Source: Sphaerodactylus townsendi (Eukaryota). From it: DNA of 64,000 bases. The stretch lies in NCBI RefSeq assembly GCF_021028975.2, contig NC_059427.1:156116001-156180000 (forward strand). Reading direction: 5' to 3'. The notes below the pieces were generated by a model, which saw nothing but the letters and a program-made list of their open reading frames with translations, was not told the origin of the DNA and did no database searches. Shown one piece after another: positions 1,755-29,541 of this stretch. Both the position numbers and the translations under genes were made by a program. Position 1 is the stretch's first letter. Each line of letters begins with the position of its first letter.

Positions 1755-2319
1755 ATGGGCGAACATAATCTCCTTAATCCTGGGTTTGTGGGACCGTTGG
1801 TGAACATCCACACGGGAGACACCTTCTATTTCCCCAATTTCCGAACCTCCGGAGGACAGCTGCCCGGCTTGCCGTCTCTCTCCTACCCAAGAAGGGACAA
1901 TGTCTGTTCTCTGCCCTGGGCTTCCTCCGAACCGTGCAACGGATACCCCCAGCCCTACCTCAGCAGCCCCGTGTCCATTAACCCTTCCTTCGGCCGAGCC
2001 TGCGACCTAGCTAGAGTGGAAGAGAGCAAGTGCTACTATAGGGAGGCGTGCTCCGAGAACAGCCCCCTCAAAAGGGAAGAGCGGGGAAGGGACTCTGCCC
2101 TGATGCCCCTCGAGGCCGGGATCCCCAATGGAATGAGCGGCAATTTCGGCAAATTTGACTACCCGGCGGCCGAGGCGGTGTCCCACGACCCCCCTTCCTG
2201 CCAGTCCTTAGAGTCAGACTCCAGCTCTTCCTTGCTCAATGAAGGGAATAAGGGCGCCGCCAGCGAGCCGTCCACCCTGATCTCCCCTCTCAACCAAGGA
2301 AGCAATCTTTCCGCTGGGG
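1755..2319 (+). CDS. HOXC12: Homeobox protein Hox-C12, coding exon 1
   Basis: N-terminus [30 protein letters not shown] is diagnostic of HOXC12. Donor GGG|GTAAGA after 2319; 565 nt gives phase 1. Confidence 0.97.
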
Positions 2320-3557
2320 GTAAGAACCGTGCGACCACGAACTCTCTCTCTCTTTCGGTGTGTGCATGTGCTGTGTGGACGTGTGGGGGTGGAGGTGTGG
2401 GTCCACAGGGCAGCGAACGGGTGCTTTGCCTCTTCTTGGTGTCTCTTGCCCAGCTAGGAAAGTCTCTGCTCGCGACTCTGGCTGTTATAAATTCCATGAA
2501 ATTAGCAGCCGAGCTGAAGGCGTGCCTATTTGTGCCGAGGCCGCTAGGGGTAGCCCTCAAATGCCTCGCGCTTTATTAGGTGGTGCTGCTTTTAAAAGAA
2601 AAGCCTATAAACATGTAAATATCCCATAAAAAGGAGATCGCGATGGGCCAGATAGACAGATTCCCTGTTCTACTTCTCTCCCTCTCTCTCCCACCCACCC
2701 CTGCTTTCCCTCATTCTAACAAGCCAGCCGTCCAGACGATTTCCCCACACGCACCCCGGCTGCGTGATTGACGCCAGGTTTGCCAAAGGAATGGGACTGG
2801 TATTTGGGGATTTTGCAGCGGTGCGGCTGGAGGAGTCTCGGGGCCTTGGCTTGCTCGGATGGGCGGCGGAAAGACCTAGGGATAGCTTTTTTGAGGAGGC
2901 TGACCCAGACCCTGCAGAATGGACCTCTCAGGTGAAAATCTGGGATGAATGCCTTTGTGGAGAGGATGCCAAGTCCCCCGCAAAAAAACCCCTTTTGCAT
3001 GTATTTCTTTTTCATTCGAGGGAGCAAAACGCGATGGTCTTCACCCCACCCCCAGCCCCCGTGGTTTTCCCCAACAAAAATTGAGCAAACTCTATTTTTG
3101 TAAAAAATATCTCCGCCCAATACTGAGGCGCCAGAAAAAAAAATCCCTACGATACGGTCCCTACTATGTGTCTGCTCTTCTGTAGAGTGAGGCTTCCATG
3201 AACAATCAGATGCTGTCGGTTCCCGTAGATATTGCTTCACCTAACTCGGAGACTCTATGACTGAGGCTGCTTGGTCTATTAAAGTTTCCCGATTTGCTAG
3301 CTCCAGACCTGATTGCCAAGCGATCCTCTAACCTGCTAGCGAATCCCCCCACCCGCCACCACGCTTTGGTCCCGAGCATCTACAGTTTATGCTTTAGGTG
3401 ACATGCTTGATGGGACCTCTAGATCTTGGGACCAAAAAGGCAGATGCAGAGATTCTTCCTCTTGGGGCTGAAGCATGCCATTCTATTGCATATGTGGGGC
3501 GTTATTCAAGAACGAGCAATTCAAAGGAAAGGAGGAAAATAATTATAATTTTTGAAA

Positions 3558-3583
3558 CTCTCTCTCTCTCTCTCTCTCTCTCT
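3558..3583 (+). repeat. (CT)n microsatellite in the HOXC12 intron
   Basis: Pure CT run about 40 bp upstream of the exon 2 acceptor. Confidence 0.9.
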
Positions 3584-3624
3584 TCCCCATGTGTTAAATG
3601 TCCTGTCAATCACATTGTTCATAG

Positions 3625-3863
3625 GTGCACCCTGGTACCCGATGCATACAAGGTCCCGAAAAAAACGAAAACCCTATTCCAAACTGCAGCTAGCGGAGCT
3701 GGAAGGGGAGTTTATGGTCAATGAATTCATTACCCGCCAAAGAAGAAGGGAGCTTTCAGACCGGTTAAACCTGAGCGACCAACAGGTGAAGATCTGGTTC
3801 CAGAACCGGCGAATGAAAAAGAAAAGACTCCTCCTGCGAGAACAAGCCCTGTCTTTCTTTTAA
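3625..3863 (+). CDS. HOXC12: Homeobox protein Hox-C12, coding exon 2 (homeodomain)
   Basis: Acceptor ttcatAG|GT at 3623-3624. Encodes [30 protein letters not shown]...[22 protein letters not shown]. Spliced CDS 804 nt, 267 aa. Confidence 0.97.
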
Positions 3864-9836: not shown

Positions 9837-9898
9837 TTAACTCCCTAGCGTTCTGGATGAAGGTAAAAGGTGCTTATTTCAAAAGTAAACTGGACTGC

Positions 9899-10049
9899 GG
9901 CCCCTTTCGCACATGCAGAATAATGCACTTTCAATCCACTTTCAATGCACTTTGCAGCTGGATTTTACTGTGCGGAACAGCAACATCCACTTGCAAACAA
10001 TTGTGAAAGTGGATTGAAAGTGCATTATTCTGCATGTGCAGAAGGGGCC
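9899..10049. mobile_element. 151-bp MITE with 46-bp terminal inverted repeats
   Basis: Left arm 9899-9944 (GGCCCCTTTCGCACATGCAGAATAATGCACTTTCAATCCACTTTCA) matches the reverse complement of 10004-10049 at 44/46 positions. Flanks TGC/TGA may be a decayed 3-bp TSD. No coding capacity. Confidence 0.85.
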
Positions 10050-10129
10050 TGAGAGTTGATTGTCCCTGCTTGTACCACAAACCTGTACAAGCTAGCCTGA
10101 ATGGTGTTAGGCTACCTCTAGCCATTATG

Positions 10130-10240: not shown

Positions 10241-12290
10241 AGGGTGAGAAGCCTGGAACCGGTTTCGCTCCACTCGGTGGGATTTCTAAACAAACATGCT
10301 CTACCCGGCTCTACATCAGTTGTGCTGTCTTCCATGCGAATCAAGTCAGAACTAGAGAATCCCTCTCTGCAGCTATGGGCAGGTGCGGGCGAGAAAACCA
10401 CAACCCTTTTTTAAAAATGGAGGGTCTCCCTTGACTTCAGCAAACGGTGGATTCCAATTCACAGGCGCAGGAGGCGTTCATTTATTGAGAAGAGGGAGCT
10501 GTACATACATCCCTTCGTTTCCGTGTGAGAAGATGGTTACAACCTCAGCCGTGCAAAAGGGTTCATAGGCATGAGAAGGACCCTGGAATGTGGCCAACAG
10601 GTCTGAATTGTATATAGTGGCATAAATTGTGTAGAAAATTGTGCATCTGGTTCACCTTGAAGAGGGAATGCCCGCTTCCAAGAGGGCTTAAACACTCACC
10701 CAAACAGATAAAACTTATTTATTACCAGTGAGCAGCTCGAACAAATTGTTGCTCGCTGTAAAAAGTGCGTCTTGTTACTGGGCTCGCCTCTTCTTTTTAT
10801 ACCGGGGTGTATTTCATAGCTAGGGCTTTAAAATGAATTCATTAGAAGCGGGAAGTATATCTCTCCCCCCCCTTCCCGAATCTCTCCAAGTGCAAAGAAT
10901 AATTCTGCCTTCGGCGGGGAGGGGGAGACCACCCTGTTAAGCTATATTTCAGCGGAGCAAATTATTGCAAAAATAACGGGAAATATGCATCTGTGCAAAC
11001 CCTTATTCAGTCGGACCGAAGATAATTCATAGCGTTTTTAGCATAGTCCAGAAGAGCGGCCAGAACATGTTTTATGCGTTTGCTGGGATTGAGGGAGAGG
11101 GTGGGGGGTTATAGAATTCATGCATAGAAGTTGAACGTGCATTTAATGCCCATTGTTCAGGGCAAAAGGATCTTGCAAGATCGACTGGACAGCACCTAAG
11201 CCAAAGAGATCCCCCCATTTTCCTTGAAAACCGAAATGGTTTTTTTAGGTGGGGGGGCGCCGCTCACCGCCTTCAGGTCAGCTGAAAAAGTCTCATGGCA
11301 AACCACAGAAATTATTTTAAAAATGACGGATGGTTTCCAGGTGGACCCTGAGCAAAGTTTATTCGAAAAAATAAATCTCACTGGATTCAGCAAGGACTTC
11401 CTCCCAAATAAGTGTGCAAAGGGTTTTTTGTTTGTTTGTTTTAAGGATTCTCTTTTCCCAGTATTGCACTCGACAGGTTTATATGGACGGTTACTCTCAA
11501 AGTGGATCACAGCCCTCCCGATCCAGCAAGAAGGAGAAGAAAGCATAGGCTATAACTCTTAACAGTGCGTGCGGGTGTATGTTTAAATGCCTCTTCACGT
11601 AGATAAGCAAATACTCAACCTACATACAGCGACCCGTCTATATTTATGACGCCTCTGCCTATCTGATCCGTCTGTCTCCGAAAGATCCCCCCATCGCTAT
11701 ATCCATCCTGCGATTCGGTAAACTTAGCCCCTGAAATAAATCCCACATAGCTACTGCCTGCGAATTCATAACCGGCTCTATTGGAAAGCGGATAAAACAA
11801 TTGAAATATCGTGCCTCATCCTTCCCAGGCAGACGGGATGTCTTCCTCTGTGACAAATGGTCCCTCGCTTGGGGGTCAGGGAGCGCTGGTCTTGGACTTC
11901 ACCGAGCATCTCTGGCGTAGCTGCCTGTCTGTCTCCCGGATCGCCTTGGCCTTCATCTGGTCCGCGTCTGCAACCCGCTCCACCCCCGGTCCCACCCTCC
12001 CTGCAGACTTTCCCATGTTTTTCCTTGGGTCATTTGGCAATTCCCGAAAGGCTGTGGAGAAAAAAACCAGAAATAAAATAAGACAAAAATAAAGAGCCGC
12101 ATGTAAAGCAGTCCAATTTTTTTTTAAAGAGTAATTTGGTGAGGCATTTGTGACGCTTATTTTCGGGGGAGGGAGAGCCCTTTGTTTAATAACACCAGGA
12201 TCCAGTCCTAAAGTAGAGTCCCAATATAGTAACGGGCAGGATCCCGCTCCCCAAATTCAGCTCCTCAAAGTCTCCTGGATTCCAAAGGAA

Positions 12291-12365
12291 GGGTTAAGCC
12301 GGTGTTTGATACTGGCAAACTGCAGTCAATGGAATTTAAACGTGCTCAACTTCGGCTTGATCCTG
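12291..12365. mobile_element. Decayed short palindromic MITE, same family as 19612-19684
   Basis: GGGTTAAG...CAATGGAATTTAAACGTGCTCAACTTCGGCTTGATC aligns by eye with GGGTTAAG...CAATAGAGCTTAAAAGCGCTTAACTTGGTCAGATC at 19612-19679. Confidence 0.4.
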
Positions 12366-12813
12366 CTGTAAGAATGATGACAACCGATTGAAAAACTGGC
12401 GACAGGAAAAAATGAAGCGGCTGTGAATCTCACCGACGGCAGCAGGAGAAAGATGTTTGTTATGGTAGGGAATGTTCTTATCCAAATCAACAGGACCTAA
12501 AAGGGTGTAATATTTTGCTCCTAATAACAGTAACTGTAATCGTCCAGTTAGATTTTGGGAGACATGGCCTACCTGTTCTTAAGACCGATCCAAAAAGTAT
12601 GGGCATACAAGAGCTAAGGCATCTTGCTGTATGATGCAACCTGGAAAACGAGCGACTTGTGACTATTCCTTCTGGTATTGGGGCAATTTTCCTCTTTGCT
12701 CCTTCATCCCAAGTGCACTTCTTTGGGAAACCAGGATTACATAAACAGCAGCCAAGTACCATTGCTTAGGGGCCTTTTCCATTAGTAGATCTTTAAAAGC
12801 TCCCCACTATTTT

Positions 12814-12866
12814 GGCCCTGATCCTAAAACAGACCTTGTGAATGAATCTTGGTTAGGAGCAGGGTC
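12814..12866. repeat. Short inverted repeat / internally deleted MITE
   Basis: GGCCCTGATCCTAA (12814-12827) versus TTAGGAGCAGGGTC (12853-12866): 12/14 complementary. Confidence 0.45.
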
Positions 12867-13373
12867 TGTTTTTGGCCCACTCTGTGGCTGCCTCATTAGT
12901 AAAGAGCCACCAAAAATATATATTTGTCTTCACATTATCCAAGAGGAATTCGTTCTTTAATTCTTTAAGTGGGAATCTCCTACAGTGTCGCTAGAAATCC
13001 TTTCTGGTTTGATGCATGAGCATCTCCCACGGTTCCCGGTGATATTACGCTTTTTCAGCTAATATGCGCCATGTGCCAGGCATCCTTTTTACTGAGCATT
13101 TTCTCTCCCTTTTATAAGGGAGAGTTCATAAATACACAATCAGAACAGAGTGGGAATAATTAGTCATGTTTACCAACATATGCTACCCGGCCACCTTTGA
13201 ATCCGTCTCAGGGCCTGGGATTGTAAGGGGGGAGGGGGGGGGCTGGAATAGAATACCAGTAATTAGTTTTAAAGCAAATCATTTCAAATGGAAACTCATA
13301 GGTAAAGTCTAGTGAACTGCAGAAGGGGTGAAAAAAAGGATCTGATTTTTATATGACTTGGAAGGTAGCAAGC

Positions 13374-13533
13374 AGACACAGCAATATTTTATTCTGGAGA
13401 GAATAAATTAATTAATATCTCTGTAGCAACTCACGCAGCGGCTCTATGGTTGACTGCATTTAAACGAGATATATGTATCAAGCCTCGCTGGTGTTGTTAA
13501 CAAGAGTGATAATAAAGATGAAAAGGATCAGAA
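13374..13533 (-). ncRNA. HOTAIR: HOTAIR exon-6-like conserved block (candidate lncRNA segment or CNE)
   Basis: Two motifs, AGACACAGCAATATTTTA...GAATAAATTAATTA and CTGGTGTTGTTAACAAG...ATAAAGATG, match the reverse complement of the human HOTAIR last exon as recalled, in the same order and with similar spacing. Transcription is not shown by the sequence. Confidence 0.5.
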
Positions 13534-15792
13534 AGATTAAAGCAAAAAAAATTATTTCAAGGATCGGTGAGAACTTGGGTTTTCCTATGGGCCTGGCTTT
13601 TGTTCCTCACTGATTATGTTAACTGGCCGAGTTCATTAATAATAAAAAAATTAATTTTTAAAAGTATCTCTCTCACCGAAGTTATTTATGTGTGCATATA
13701 CTGGAAGAAAACCCATAGGGCCCAATCCTGCTACTTTGGAGTTCCATAGATTTCTCAGGTGAGTTTTCTCAAGAGATAACAGCACTCCTGATTTTTTTTA
13801 AAGGCCAGAGGTATGTATGATTTGTTGACCCAAACAAGCTTTTATGTCTCTCTCCCCAAAATGAGTGGTATTTGCTCCCATCATATGGCTTGTTTGCTCC
13901 GAGAGGTGCCCAAGGCAGTATTGGATTTTGTCCTCTGTTCAGAACCTAAAGAGCTGTTCCATTATTAAGAGTGCCATTCCATAATTAAAGAGTGGCTTCA
14001 GAGACATCGCTATCTTTTATGGCAAGGCCAAAAGTCAGAAAAGATTTTTCTCCTGGGCCTAAAATGAATCCCCCCCTCCCTTTCTTTGTTTAAGGTTATC
14101 TGATAGGCAAGCTATACTCTAGTCTCCTTACTATTAAATGTCACCCCCTCCATAGTGATGAGAAGGTCTTTTCTATTGTTTTTACAAAACCAGCCACACC
14201 TGAGAGTCTTTGAGAATCCAACATTCATCTCCTGAAAGGGGGAAGGGGAGGGGGTGTCACTTCATTGCCTCCAAGATGTTACCTTCTCCAAAACACATGC
14301 TTAATGGAGATGATATAATTATTAAAGGGCATGTGCAAGTTAATTTCACTGTGATGAAGAAGTGTTAATCTGTTAAGAGGATTTCCCCCCCTAAGCGATT
14401 TTTATCAGTATTATTAGTATCATTACATGAAATAGGCTGGGGGCGGGGGGGGGGGGTGGTGGACATATAGGGAATTCCAATGAATCGTTGCATTCAGACT
14501 ACCCAAAACTAGGGAGAGTTTTCTGCCTCCTGGAAAGGAAGTGCATGGCATCAAAATGTCTCAATAGCTTGCAAAATCACCCAAGTCCCACTTGTCAACC
14601 TCTTCGGGTTCTGCAAGGCAGAAGTCCTGACCAGAAGCAGAAAGTGGATAAGAGCCATCATGTATCTGGTGTTTTGACTCTCAAAAGCTCATTTTCATAC
14701 CCTGAAAATCCTGTTGCCTTCTGAGGTGCACTCAAATCCAACTAGCTGTTCTAAGTAGTCCATTGGGGTTTTTTTTTTCATGCATACCAACTATGAACCG
14801 TGAGAATACACAGGGTGATTGTCCGGAAGCAAATTTCAAGCCCTGGCACACTGATGCAAGTAGCTGGCCACCCTATAAAGAGGGTTTTTAAAAAGGCATA
14901 TACTCCCCTCTGCGGCTTGGACATGAAATTTACCCTTGGCCTGCCAAGAGGTGGGAATAGATATCTGCATTGACTAAGCAACATCTAAACATTCTCAATC
15001 TGATCCCATGGACACAACACTTGGTAGTACAAATTGGCCTCTGTGCACACATCTTTTGTTTCTCCAGGTGAAGATTTCGCTTCATCTAGCAGAGATCTCC
15101 TTAGAGTTTCTTGTTTACATCTAGGTGGGGGTGTGTGTGAAAGTGTGTCTATCTGACGATCCATTCACAAATGTCCATTACATAAACAGAGGTGCCCAAG
15201 TTGCTAGACACTCCCATAAGGATACAGATAAACAATGATATTGTTCTAGGGATATCTAAGCCAGGAGTCACTTTTAAGTCCCCTTCAAACCAAGAGAGCA
15301 TAATGCACCTTTTTGAATCTCACCCCAGCTGACACCAATTGAACTTTAAAAAAAATACAATTGGACTTTTAAAAAAATGTCTTGCATTGGGTTGTGCCTT
15401 TCATCGTTAAGCGTCTATTTAAATTATATGGGGCAAACCTCATTTCTGAAATTGGTCAGCTGTTGTTTCTGTGGGGCCCTGAATAAGACACAAGGAAGGA
15501 CCCAACAACCCCAGCCTGCCTCTGGTCACTGGAAAGCAAGTGTTGTGGATCCCAGGGAGATTTAGGTCTGAGTTTAAGATTTCTCTGCATGTTTGTTTTT
15601 AAAGGTGCAGAACGGCTTACACTCGAGTAGTTCGGCTTCATTCACTGGTGCAGAGGTTCTTCTTCCCAAACCGCTCCCTGATCCTTATTGACTTAGGTAG
15701 GAAACACAATGGTACATTGTGTAATACACTGCTGAATATTATCTTTTCCCCTCTTTTATTCCCTGTTCTTCCCTTGCGGGATATGAAAGGAT

Positions 15793-16370: not shown

Positions 16371-16928
16371 GGAAATATATATATATTGTTTTTCAGTGGG
16401 TTTCAAATACAGGGAAACGTTCACCGTCCTCAAACAACATACAAGAAGAGCCAGCTGTTCGAATCGGGACAGATAATTTTCATTTAAAGGGAGCACCCTT
16501 CAAAGCCATCCCCCCCACCTTGCCACCCCCCCTAATCCCATCTCAAGGCCACATTCAACAGCAACCCAAGCCCTGCAACGGAGAAGTCTGCTCAATAGCC
16601 CTTTAGTACAGCAAGCTAGAGATGGGGGGGGGGAGGGGAGGGGGAGAGGAACCTTTGTTGATTCCCAGAAATGAATCCTCCCCGCCCCCCACACACACAC
16701 ACATTTTTCTCCCCGCCACCCCTTCCCCGTCCCCTGCTGGAGTTTACAGAAAATTGTACCTCGTTTGCTGCCGCTTAAAAATCAGCCAAGATCTTTAGCA
16801 ATTCAGTGAGACCTTGCCCGGCCGGTGCTAATCTTTATTTGTGTGTGTCGGATGACTTCTGTTTACAACTGTCTGTCTGGGTGGGCGGGGGCCGCCATTA
16901 CAAAGTGAAGGTCAAGTTAGCATCCTAC

Positions 16929-17103
16929 CTTATATGGCGTTCTGCGGTCCTCCATTTTCAAGGGTCTGTCGCAACGGGGCGAGATGACCACCCCCTTTCC
17001 TGATTCACGTAAACATGGTCGGGCTCTTTTCTGTTTGTTGCTTGCCCCCCACCCTGCCCGCCCGCCCGGGCGCCGTGCTGATTTGGGGGCGGTGGGGGGT
17101 TAT
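16929..17103 (-). ncRNA. HOTAIR: Candidate HOTAIR exon-4-like noncoding exon (175 nt) with canonical splice sites
   Basis: Minus strand acceptor cctttcctctttatcttggtctctgcattcAG| and exon end AAAGAGCCCGACCATGTTTAC...TGAAAATGGAGGACCGC...ATATAAG|GTAGGA. Recalled human exon end: AAAGAGTCTGATGTTTAC...TGAAATGGAGGACCGG...TTATAAG|. Confidence 0.55.
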
Positions 17104-27225: not shown

Positions 27226-27904
27226 ATGTTTAACTCAGTGAACCTGGGCAACTTCTGCTCGCAGTCGCGCAAAGAGCGGAGCGCCGACTTTGGGGAGCGA
27301 GCAGGTTGCGCTTCCAACCTCTACCTCCCCAGCTGCACCTATTACGTCCCAGAATTTTCGACTGTGTCATCTTTCCTGCCACAGGCCCCCTCTCGCCAAA
27401 TCTCCTACCCTTACTCCGCCAACCTCTCCCAAGTGCAGCCCGTGCGCGAGGTCTCCTACGGGCTAGACCCGGCCAATAAATGGCACCATAGAAGCAATTA
27501 CGCCTCGTGCTACTCCGCAGAGGAGCTGATGCACCGCGACTGCCTCCCGCCTGCCACCATGACAGAGATGCTCATGAAAAACGAGAGCGCCTACAGCCAC
27601 CACCACCACCCGGCCACCAACCACCCGGCGTCCACGGGCTTCTACTCCAGCATGAACAAGAACAGCGTCCTCCCGCAAGGCTTCGACCGCTTCTTCGAGA
27701 ACGCCTACTGCGCCACCGAGACCCCGACGGAGCCCTGCCTGCAGAAGGGCGACCCCAAGCTGGAGACGGACCCCCAGCCCGGCGCGCTGCCGTCCCGCGG
27801 CGACCAAGGCGTGGACCCGGAAGACGAGGAAGAAAACACCAACCCGGGCTCCTCTGCCTCCTCTTCCTCTGTCAACAAGGAAGGCAGCAAAGCCAGCAAC
27901 TCCA
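27226..27904 (+). CDS. HOXC11: Homeobox protein Hox-C11, coding exon 1
   Basis: [44 protein letters not shown] is the HOXC11 N-terminus. Donor CCA|GTAGGT after 27904; 679 nt gives phase 1. Confidence 0.97.
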
Positions 27905-27914
27905 GTAGGTAGAC

Positions 27915-27964
27915 AGAGAGAGAGAGAGAGAGAGAGGGAGCGAGAGGGAGAGAGAGAGAGAGAG
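27915..27964 (+). repeat. (GA)n-rich microsatellite just 3' of the HOXC11 donor
   Basis: Interrupted AG run. Confidence 0.85.
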
Positions 27965-29308
27965 CGCGAGCAGTAAATGGGAAAGGTTAAGGGACTAGCC
28001 CGCTGTTTTGTCGGTCAAATTTTATGTGGAGTTTTATAAGCATTCAAAGGATTTTATTATAACCTACAAAGCTCTTTCTTGCAACGAGAAGAATTTTTAC
28101 GATGGGAAAGGCTCTTTGAGAAAAATGGAGATGTTAGGTGCAGACACAGTATCTCCGAGTCTGTGAAATTTTTAAAAGCACACCATGGTGACAAATATTA
28201 ACTTTGATCATGAACTTACATGAGCATTTTAAAAGGATTTGGTCCCGGGCTTCTGAGGGTAAAAGGCAATTGGGCAGAACACGGTTTTCGTTTCCTGTCC
28301 TCGCGAGGAGGCACTAAGAGATGCATGCGGGGGGGAGAGGATTTATCTATAGTATATACCTTTATTTTATTCAAAATGTATACCTAGATTGAAATGTTTG
28401 TGTTTTCCGGGTAGGGAGAGACCACCTTGCCGGGCGGTCAACACCCAGTGTTTTGTTTTCCCTAGAAGATTGCATTGGTTTTTATAAATGGAATTTCTGG
28501 CTTTACTTTTCACATCATTTTATTTTGATGCTCAAGGTGTCTTTTTTTTCTTTTTCTTTTTAAAAGAAATTTGCTTAGGGGGGGAAGTTTTTTAAAAAAA
28601 ATCTGAATCAAAGCATTTGGTCTAAGCAAGTGTTCCCTTCTGAGGCCAGGCTATTTTCAATCAGATTCGAACCAAGCTTCCTGCACCATATATGCACTCG
28701 TAGATGGATGCATGGACGGACGGGCAGACAGACAGACAGCAATTCTGCCCGATGCCTTGGCGAGCTCCCTTTTTGACCACTCCGATCTGTTGCTTTGATG
28801 TTTGAGTGCCTTTCCCCTCACTGGGTATGTGTGCGTGCGGCGTGTCTGTGGAGGGTGCCATTCGCGTTAATCAAAAACGTATGCAGAACATAATGCCCAG
28901 TTCCTATAGCTGTAACATTGCTCGTGCTGCCTCTATAGGGCTGCGGATTTCCCCTTTTGAAAAGCCAGCTTTCCCATGGCTGCCGTGCTTCCCTCGCAAC
29001 CCCCCCTCCGCCCCCAGCAGCCATTGTTGATGGCTGCGATGGCCAAGGTTCAAGCATAGAAACCCCCCCCCCCAAATAAAAACCCCTCCAAGCTCATATA
29101 TTCCAAACTTAACAGGGACTGGTTATCCTCATGGCTGTGCTACACGTGCCTGCTAGGCAAAGGCTACGCTTGCAGACGCGTGTGTAGGAAACTGTGACGG
29201 GGAGTGGGAAGGAAGATGCTGGGCGTTTGTGGTTTCATTGGTTTGGTGGATTTCATTCCTTCCTGCTTGCATTTCTCTCTCTTCTTCTTCTCCTCCTTCT
29301 CCCCAAAG

Positions 29309-29541
29309 GTGCCCCCCGCACGAGGAAGAAGCGCTGCCCTTACTCGAAATTCCAAATCAGAGAGCTAGAGAGAGAATTCTTCTTCAATGTCTATATAAAC
29401 AAAGAGAAAAGGCTGCAGCTGTCTAGGATGTTGAACCTCACCGACCGACAGGTTAAAATTTGGTTTCAGAACAGAAGGATGAAAGAAAAAAAACTAAGCA
29501 GAGACCGCCTGCAGTATTTCTCTGGAAACCCCTTATTGTGA
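29309..29541 (+). CDS. HOXC11: Homeobox protein Hox-C11, coding exon 2 (homeodomain)
   Basis: Long pyrimidine tract plus aAG| acceptor at 29307-29308. Encodes [34 protein letters not shown]...[12 protein letters not shown]. Spliced CDS 912 nt, 303 aa. Confidence 0.97.

Follow-up and report, generated by a model that had tools for sequence, protein, structure and literature searches.

An orthologue of the conserved core of HOTAIR exon 6 in the HoxC cluster of Sphaerodactylus townsendi, putatively a DNA regulatory element

We identify, between HoxC12 and HoxC11 of Sphaerodactylus townsendi, a short noncoding element that we judge from its sequence to be a real orthologue of a known HOTAIR domain, in a lineage where it is apparently undescribed. 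This domain, “domain B,” comprises 239 bp of exon 6 of mammalian HOTAIR (He, Liu and Zhu 2011, PMC3103462). The S. townsendi element spans ~190 bases and consists of two conserved blocks, A and B, on either side of a diverged spacer, together with a third short motif. We lean, by a modest degree, toward reading it as an amniote DNA cis-regulatory element, with putative enhancer activity, that is overlain by the last exon of HOTAIR. Our search for a published report of domain B in a reptile, made on titles and abstract openings with thin coverage of subscription literature and supplementary figures, found none; we expect, however, that public vertebrate alignments probably show this block.

The window analyzed, a 64,000-nt stretch of the S. 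townsendi genome, contains a posterior HoxC cluster with HoxC12, HoxC11, HoxC10, mir-196 (47535-47608), and HoxC9, all on the plus strand; the Hox names are those we presume from protein likeness and from cluster order. HoxC12 (two coding exons, 1755-3863), recognized from its open reading frame and homeobox translations, forms the upstream flank, and HoxC11 (two coding exons, 27226-29541), recognized from its translations and told apart from its HoxD11 and HoxA11 paralogues, forms the downstream flank. Blocks A and B lie between these two genes in the position, orientation, and order of HOTAIR, whose sense strand is the minus strand here. The Rfam models HOTAIR_1, HOTAIR_2, and HOTAIR_3 run opposite to the published transcript, being its reverse complement, which rules out taking a plus-strand match as a sign of plus-strand RNA; annotation pipelines that follow these models would assign HOTAIR to the wrong strand.

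Block B (13466-13531) contains AGATA, the TGTTAACA palindrome, and TAAAGATG as its cores and matches HOTAIR_2 (RF01905) with 47.3 bits and an E value of 1.5e-9 in a local profile search, with 51/69 model positions identical as counted from the alignment. This score is below the Rfam gathering cut-off of 60 bits. In the whole genome (1.8 Gb), block B is nonetheless the top match among the 10 listed for HOTAIR_2, with an E value of 1.3e-4 against 0.58 for the runner-up, in a search that scored 62 of ~195,000 first-look candidates. Chance likeness of AT-rich sequence is ruled out by this search as the origin of block B, and a repeat origin of the element is rejected, with just short chance repeats present in 13200-13700. 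The word TTGTTAACAA, starting at 13494, occurs once in the window. A DNA search gave one genome match for blocks A and B, which is weak evidence of uniqueness, as the method skips common words and missed a paralogue in HoxD of the 32-nt element described below.

Block A (13374-13420), with TATTTTA and AATTAATTA as cores, is by itself at chance level and counts just through its place beside block B. Its match to HOTAIR_1 (RF01904) at 13385-13420 has 26/37 identical positions, an E value of 3.1, and 17.8 bits, below the gathering cut-off of 44, and it is absent from the 36 matches listed at E<=10 in a genome search that scored 81 of ~1.7 million candidates. The expectation of a likeness better than that of shuffled AT-rich sequence is thus borne out by block B and not by block A alone. 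The TAATTAATT word of block A is found in all 9 mammals inspected. TAATTA with TGTTAACA 60-90 nt away is found a single time in the window, where 0.02 such pairs are expected; 2/100 shuffles contain the pair, and the pattern was picked post hoc.

The first-pass annotation had placed the two blocks 73 nt apart at 13374-13414 and 13488-13533, and both are found there, although the B motif it quoted ends at 13520, while the homology runs from 13466 to 13531. The distance of 73 nt falls within the range of 71-90 nt counted in eight mammals (75 in human and rhesus, 71 in dog, 76 in mouse, 77 in rat and horse, 80 in cow, and 90 in dolphin). The human words it quoted, their order, and their spacing of 75 nt all match exon 6 of human HOTAIR as printed in the supplement of PMC3103462, which also gives the sequences of other mammals. 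The spacer itself (13421-13465) is diverged: mammalian spacers are GC-rich, whereas GC is 44% over 13415-13487 here, with nothing unusual in its folding (z -0.12 to -0.94). A third conserved motif with a TTTAT core, recognized by eye against mammalian domain B and carrying no statistic, lies at 13345-13357, 17 nt past block A and at the same distance as in human; it falls outside the range first proposed for the element (13374-13533). Farther out on the other side, 13590-13660 has a T-rich run and two purine-rich words that by eye are faintly like domain A of human exon 6, with different spacing.

The 239-bp mammalian domain starts with block B and also contains block A, so that it takes in both HOTAIR_2 and HOTAIR_1, and the S. 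townsendi element shares its position between HoxC12 and HoxC11, its strand, its order, and its core words. Comparing by eye with the printed sequences of nine mammals, we could align the first ~190 of the 239 nt, whereas the last ~45 nt have no likeness in S. townsendi. On the HOTAIR strand, the columns common to the nine mammals and S. townsendi form short islands, CATCTTTA, CTTGTTAACA, TATCTC, and TAATTAATT, separated by gaps of variable length; two of these islands are palindromes. What survives of the domain is a set of short AT-rich words: TTTAT/ATAAA, TAATTA, and TGTTAACA. The HOTAIR_2 match and this comparison together uphold the orthology to the conserved domain of the HOTAIR last exon that had been proposed from the letters of the sequence.

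A second block of HOTAIR likeness lies at 16921-17036 on the minus strand and corresponds to exon 4, with a HOTAIR_3 match at ~16929-17036, for which a search restricted to 361 nt gave 17.7 bits and an E value of 0.1. Directly after the position where the exon would end, 16929, comes a GT, and a published 32-nt element (16889-16920, minus strand) lies 8 nt farther on, a geometry identical to that of human. The matches to the three HOTAIR models follow the mammalian order, and the collinearity of blocks A and B with the exon-4-like block, as well as their orientation and spacing, proved to be as in mammals, as first suggested; the exon-4 end and domain B are ~3.4 kb apart here versus 2.26 kb in human. 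Further HOTAIR families are absent from the Rfam matches listed in 5000-27000, an interval that holds three stretches of N. Block B (13488-13502) and the exon-4-like block (16993-17010) have a TGTTWAC core in common, and in mammals exon 4 and domain B have, by eye, a common 15-base word with one mismatch. TGTTWACA occurs nine times on both strands of the window against 3.4 expected (5/100 shuffles), and we take it to be perhaps a forkhead-like site, or chance.

The 32-nt element is separate from blocks A and B and is considered here for context. By eye, it is identical to the human sequence of PMC7139118 Table S1 at 30/32 positions, a table whose species include no lizard or snake. Nepal et al. 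(10.1101/250621, PMC7139118) date it, with ~175 nt of flank, to jawed vertebrates and describe limited homology in vertebrates for the remainder of HOTAIR; it bears enhancer marks (10.1101/250621). Like blocks A and B, it is thus a pre-mammalian noncoding sequence of the HOTAIR locus with a proposed enhancer role, and it differs from them in having a HoxD paralogue. In S. townsendi this paralogue lies between HoxD12 and HoxD11 (alignment score 48, with 0/60 shuffles as high) and lacks GT at the donor position. Blocks A and B, by contrast, have no paralogue detectable between HoxD12 and HoxD11 (score 24 against a shuffle mean of 24.0, with 36/60 as high). A blastn search (word size 7) of HoxD and HoxA, covering 40 kb of either cluster, gave none, and neither did Rfam on 6 of the 8 HoxD and HoxA loci. 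In local alignments of HoxD and HoxA against 60 shuffles, the nearest cases were A and B together versus HoxA13-11 (5/60) and A versus HoxA13-11 (4/60). Since the 32-nt element has a HoxD paralogue and the blocks have none detectable, the blocks are a different, HoxC-specific element.

Several other features of the Hox clusters were recorded. A ~155-nt palindromic element at 9893-10054, from which spurious miRNA matches arise, is likely a nonautonomous transposon; 40 kb of HoxD sequence hold four or more relatives of it, with identities of up to 90%. Transposon-like copies occur within Hox clusters of this genome, in which the HoxD12 homeobox is intact, two traits that would suit a lizard. The HoxC11 intron contains a TTTAT-rich element (28017-28057) with look-alikes in the HoxD11 and HoxA11 introns, probably a known paralogous Hox11 intron element.

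The match of a sauropsid sequence to the conserved core of mammalian HOTAIR implies that the element predates mammals; that the genome is a sauropsid's is borne out by its cluster of 37 beta-keratin matches. PMC3103462 found no HOTAIR orthologue in platypus, chicken, or zebrafish, and PMC3541083 describes conservation as much lower in frog; the ~190-base element argues against the proposed marsupial origin for the exon-6 domain-B sequence. A similar case is known from HoxA, where domains of the mammalian lncRNAs HOXA11-AS1, HOTTIP, and HOTAIRM1 are likewise collinear in birds, alligator, and turtle, with equal doubt over whether their function lies in RNA or DNA (Gardner et al. 2015, PMC4378963); HOTAIR is not named among the conserved domains in the relevant section of that paper. 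In HoxA of S. townsendi, at loci L012 (3838-6079) and L014 (6054-6499), HOXA11-AS1 regions 2, 4, and 5 exceed the Rfam cut-offs and HOTTIP_2 reaches an E value of 9e-14; these models, unlike those of HOTAIR, match the anti-Hox strand.

Our preference for a DNA module rests on short words, two of which are palindromes, that are conserved although the gaps between them vary, and on the lack of a fold and of a coding signal. The part that has decayed is the spacer, presumed to be the GC-rich paired fragment proposed for the mammalian RNA, and the element is noncoding (its only frame has 46 codons), single-copy, and kept between distant vertebrates, as are conserved elements of Hox clusters. We envisage that the interval from HoxC12 to HoxC11 holds a compact regulatory module that would act as DNA, its short AT-rich words binding transcription factors of the homeodomain type. 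TTTAT/ATAAA and TAATTA resemble the sites of posterior HOX/CDX proteins and of homeodomain proteins in general and would be bound by them, and the TGTTAACA palindrome may bind a further, possibly dimeric, partner. Such a module could tune HoxC11/HoxC12 or the antisense promoter in tissues of the tail, hindlimb, and genitals, and HOTAIR transcription, whether old or mammal-specific, would cross this older DNA element. The enhancer marks on the nearby 32-nt element favor this view, as does the finding in mouse that Hotair deletion mainly alters Hoxc11 and Hoxc12 in cis (PMC5157951); the same study ascribes these effects to lost termination signals and not to an enhancer, which counts against the DNA reading. 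Also against it are ~2 read pairs over block B, a possible hairpin in block A, and an altered ATAAA word in the chimpanzee row, and AT-rich words are typical sites of RNA-binding proteins as well. The GT kept at the human donor position and absent from the HoxD copy is a further point against DNA action, and it fits an old spliced antisense RNA.

Alternatively, the words could act on RNA: the amniote ancestor would already have made a spliced antisense transcript like HOTAIR, in whose last exon they bind proteins or direct processing, a possibility to which we give clearly less credence than to a DNA element. The exon-4-like end with its GT and 8-nt gap and the order of the three Rfam matches speak for it, as does the host transcript that PMC7139118 gives for the HoxC element in coelacanth; the GT, however, lies next to DNA of deep conservation, which could be why it is retained, and mouse Hotair is dispensable for development (PMC5157951). 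Direct evidence of transcription is slight. We mapped three RNA-seq runs of a relative, of ~16 million reads each, on 12135-13630, a stretch that leaves the exon-4-like block outside, with no HoxC positive control. The runs gave 0, 0, and 6 reads (6 of 16.75 million), and those with zero reads are no test. About two read pairs cover 13435-13630, including block B, with the first mate on the plus strand, which would be HOTAIR-strand RNA in most stranded libraries, strandedness and tissue being not on record for this one; another pair near 12600-12750 is in the opposite orientation. Among these six reads there are none on block A and no splice joints or loose ends, and DNA carry-over is a possible source of the trace. 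We are more doubtful still of the full proposition that a spliced antisense RNA, with the domain-B core in its last exon and the exon-4 donor, dates from the amniote ancestor and persists in lizards, its conserved words acting as RNA. Domain B is known in mammals from transcribed and spliced HOTAIR, whereas its S. townsendi counterpart is known mainly from sequence. The DNA and RNA readings are not exclusive, as the locus may be transcribed while its words are held by a DNA function.

Folding gives little reason to invoke a selected RNA secondary structure, in block A or in the spacer, which we consider very unlikely. Measured against its shuffles, the 241-nt domain has ordinary folding, with z -0.03 for one strand and +0.40 for the other, and the three Rfam models, as shown, contain no base pairs. 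This agrees with the caveat, raised at the outset, that constraint may act on DNA, now the likelier reading. The GC-rich paired fragment proposed as the structure of domain B (PMC3103462), which from the text of that paper is probably the spacer, is not recovered here, where the spacer has 44% GC and z -0.1 to -0.9 (-0.1 to -0.2 on the HOTAIR strand). A 7-bp spacer stem has a 3' arm like the mammalian one by eye, and two of its pairs would look compensatory under one shifted alignment, also by eye. On the minus strand, block A can form an 8-bp hairpin (z -2.9, 2/200 shuffles, chosen from five subwindows), yet 10/363 background windows and 2/41 AT-rich windows fold as well, the signal weakens in wider windows (z -1.4 and -0.9), and mammals keep by eye ~3 contiguous pairs of the stem, one of them broken in horse. 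A published covariation analysis of high power detected no structure conserved in HOTAIR (10.1101/789404). A 2026 preprint (10.64898/2026.05.18.725451) reports covarying pairs in Domain 3 of primate HOTAIR, at positions 1408-1457, seemingly on the 3' side of domain B (950-1190), although the numbering of the two papers may differ. A separate 61-nt minus-strand window at 13089-13149, 230 nt from block A, has a folding z of -4.1 and no family match.

Three further explanations concern signals within the blocks. AATAAA is present on the plus strand in both blocks (13402 and 13511) and at 13641, and the blocks could therefore mark the 3' end, or the termination, of a Hox-strand transcript like AntiHotair and keep it from reaching HoxC11. 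A CpG-richer patch at ~10750-12250 (observed/expected 0.6-0.8), between HoxC12 and the element and in the place of the CpG-island promoter of AntiHotair in mouse, would suit this arrangement, as mouse AntiHotair begins at a CpG island and ends within the Hotair region (PMC5157951). We nevertheless find it improbable: the mammalian consensus has AATCAA and CATAAA in these places and no AATAAA, the window holds 71 AATAAA on the plus strand, and the mouse transcript is estimated to end near the Hotair 3' end, more than 1 kb from domain B (PMC5157951).

It is highly improbable that a micropeptide is encoded on the Hox strand, in a 46-codon ATG frame at 13473-13613, with block B supplying its hydrophobic N-terminal part. 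The ATG is present in seven of the nine mammals, indels in the reptile and dog are of 3 nt, and 8 of the 15 changes between the reptile and the consensus are at third positions (all by eye); human and chimpanzee lack the ATG, however, and a 1-nt gap in dolphin leads to an early stop. Changes among the mammals number ~10/7/6 at codon positions 1/2/3, and the third positions of the core words are nearly invariant, again by eye.

We give equally little weight to the idea that block B is a conserved splice acceptor for the antisense RNA, ending at the CAG at 13488. An AG-free tract of 86 nt, 69% pyrimidine, precedes this AG, and both properties are equaled or exceeded at 6 of the 670 minus-strand YAGs of the interval. 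Cow and dog nonetheless lack the AG, mammals have further AGs within the tract, the human block lies ~400 nt inside exon 6, and read depth crosses 13488 with no joint or loose end, on very few reads.

We see a modest gain in knowledge, since older sequence from the HOTAIR locus, also pre-mammalian, has already been published (10.1101/250621, PMC7139118). With a distant orthologue at hand, the conserved 239-nt domain shrinks to four or five words, each 6-10 bases long; the GC-rich part proposed as structured is not kept in S. townsendi. It has long been disputed whether HOTAIR works through its RNA or its DNA, and such short words provide testable point mutations. If an ancestral spliced RNA proved true, HOTAIR would be more than 300 million years old as a gene, with its conserved function lying in a few short words.
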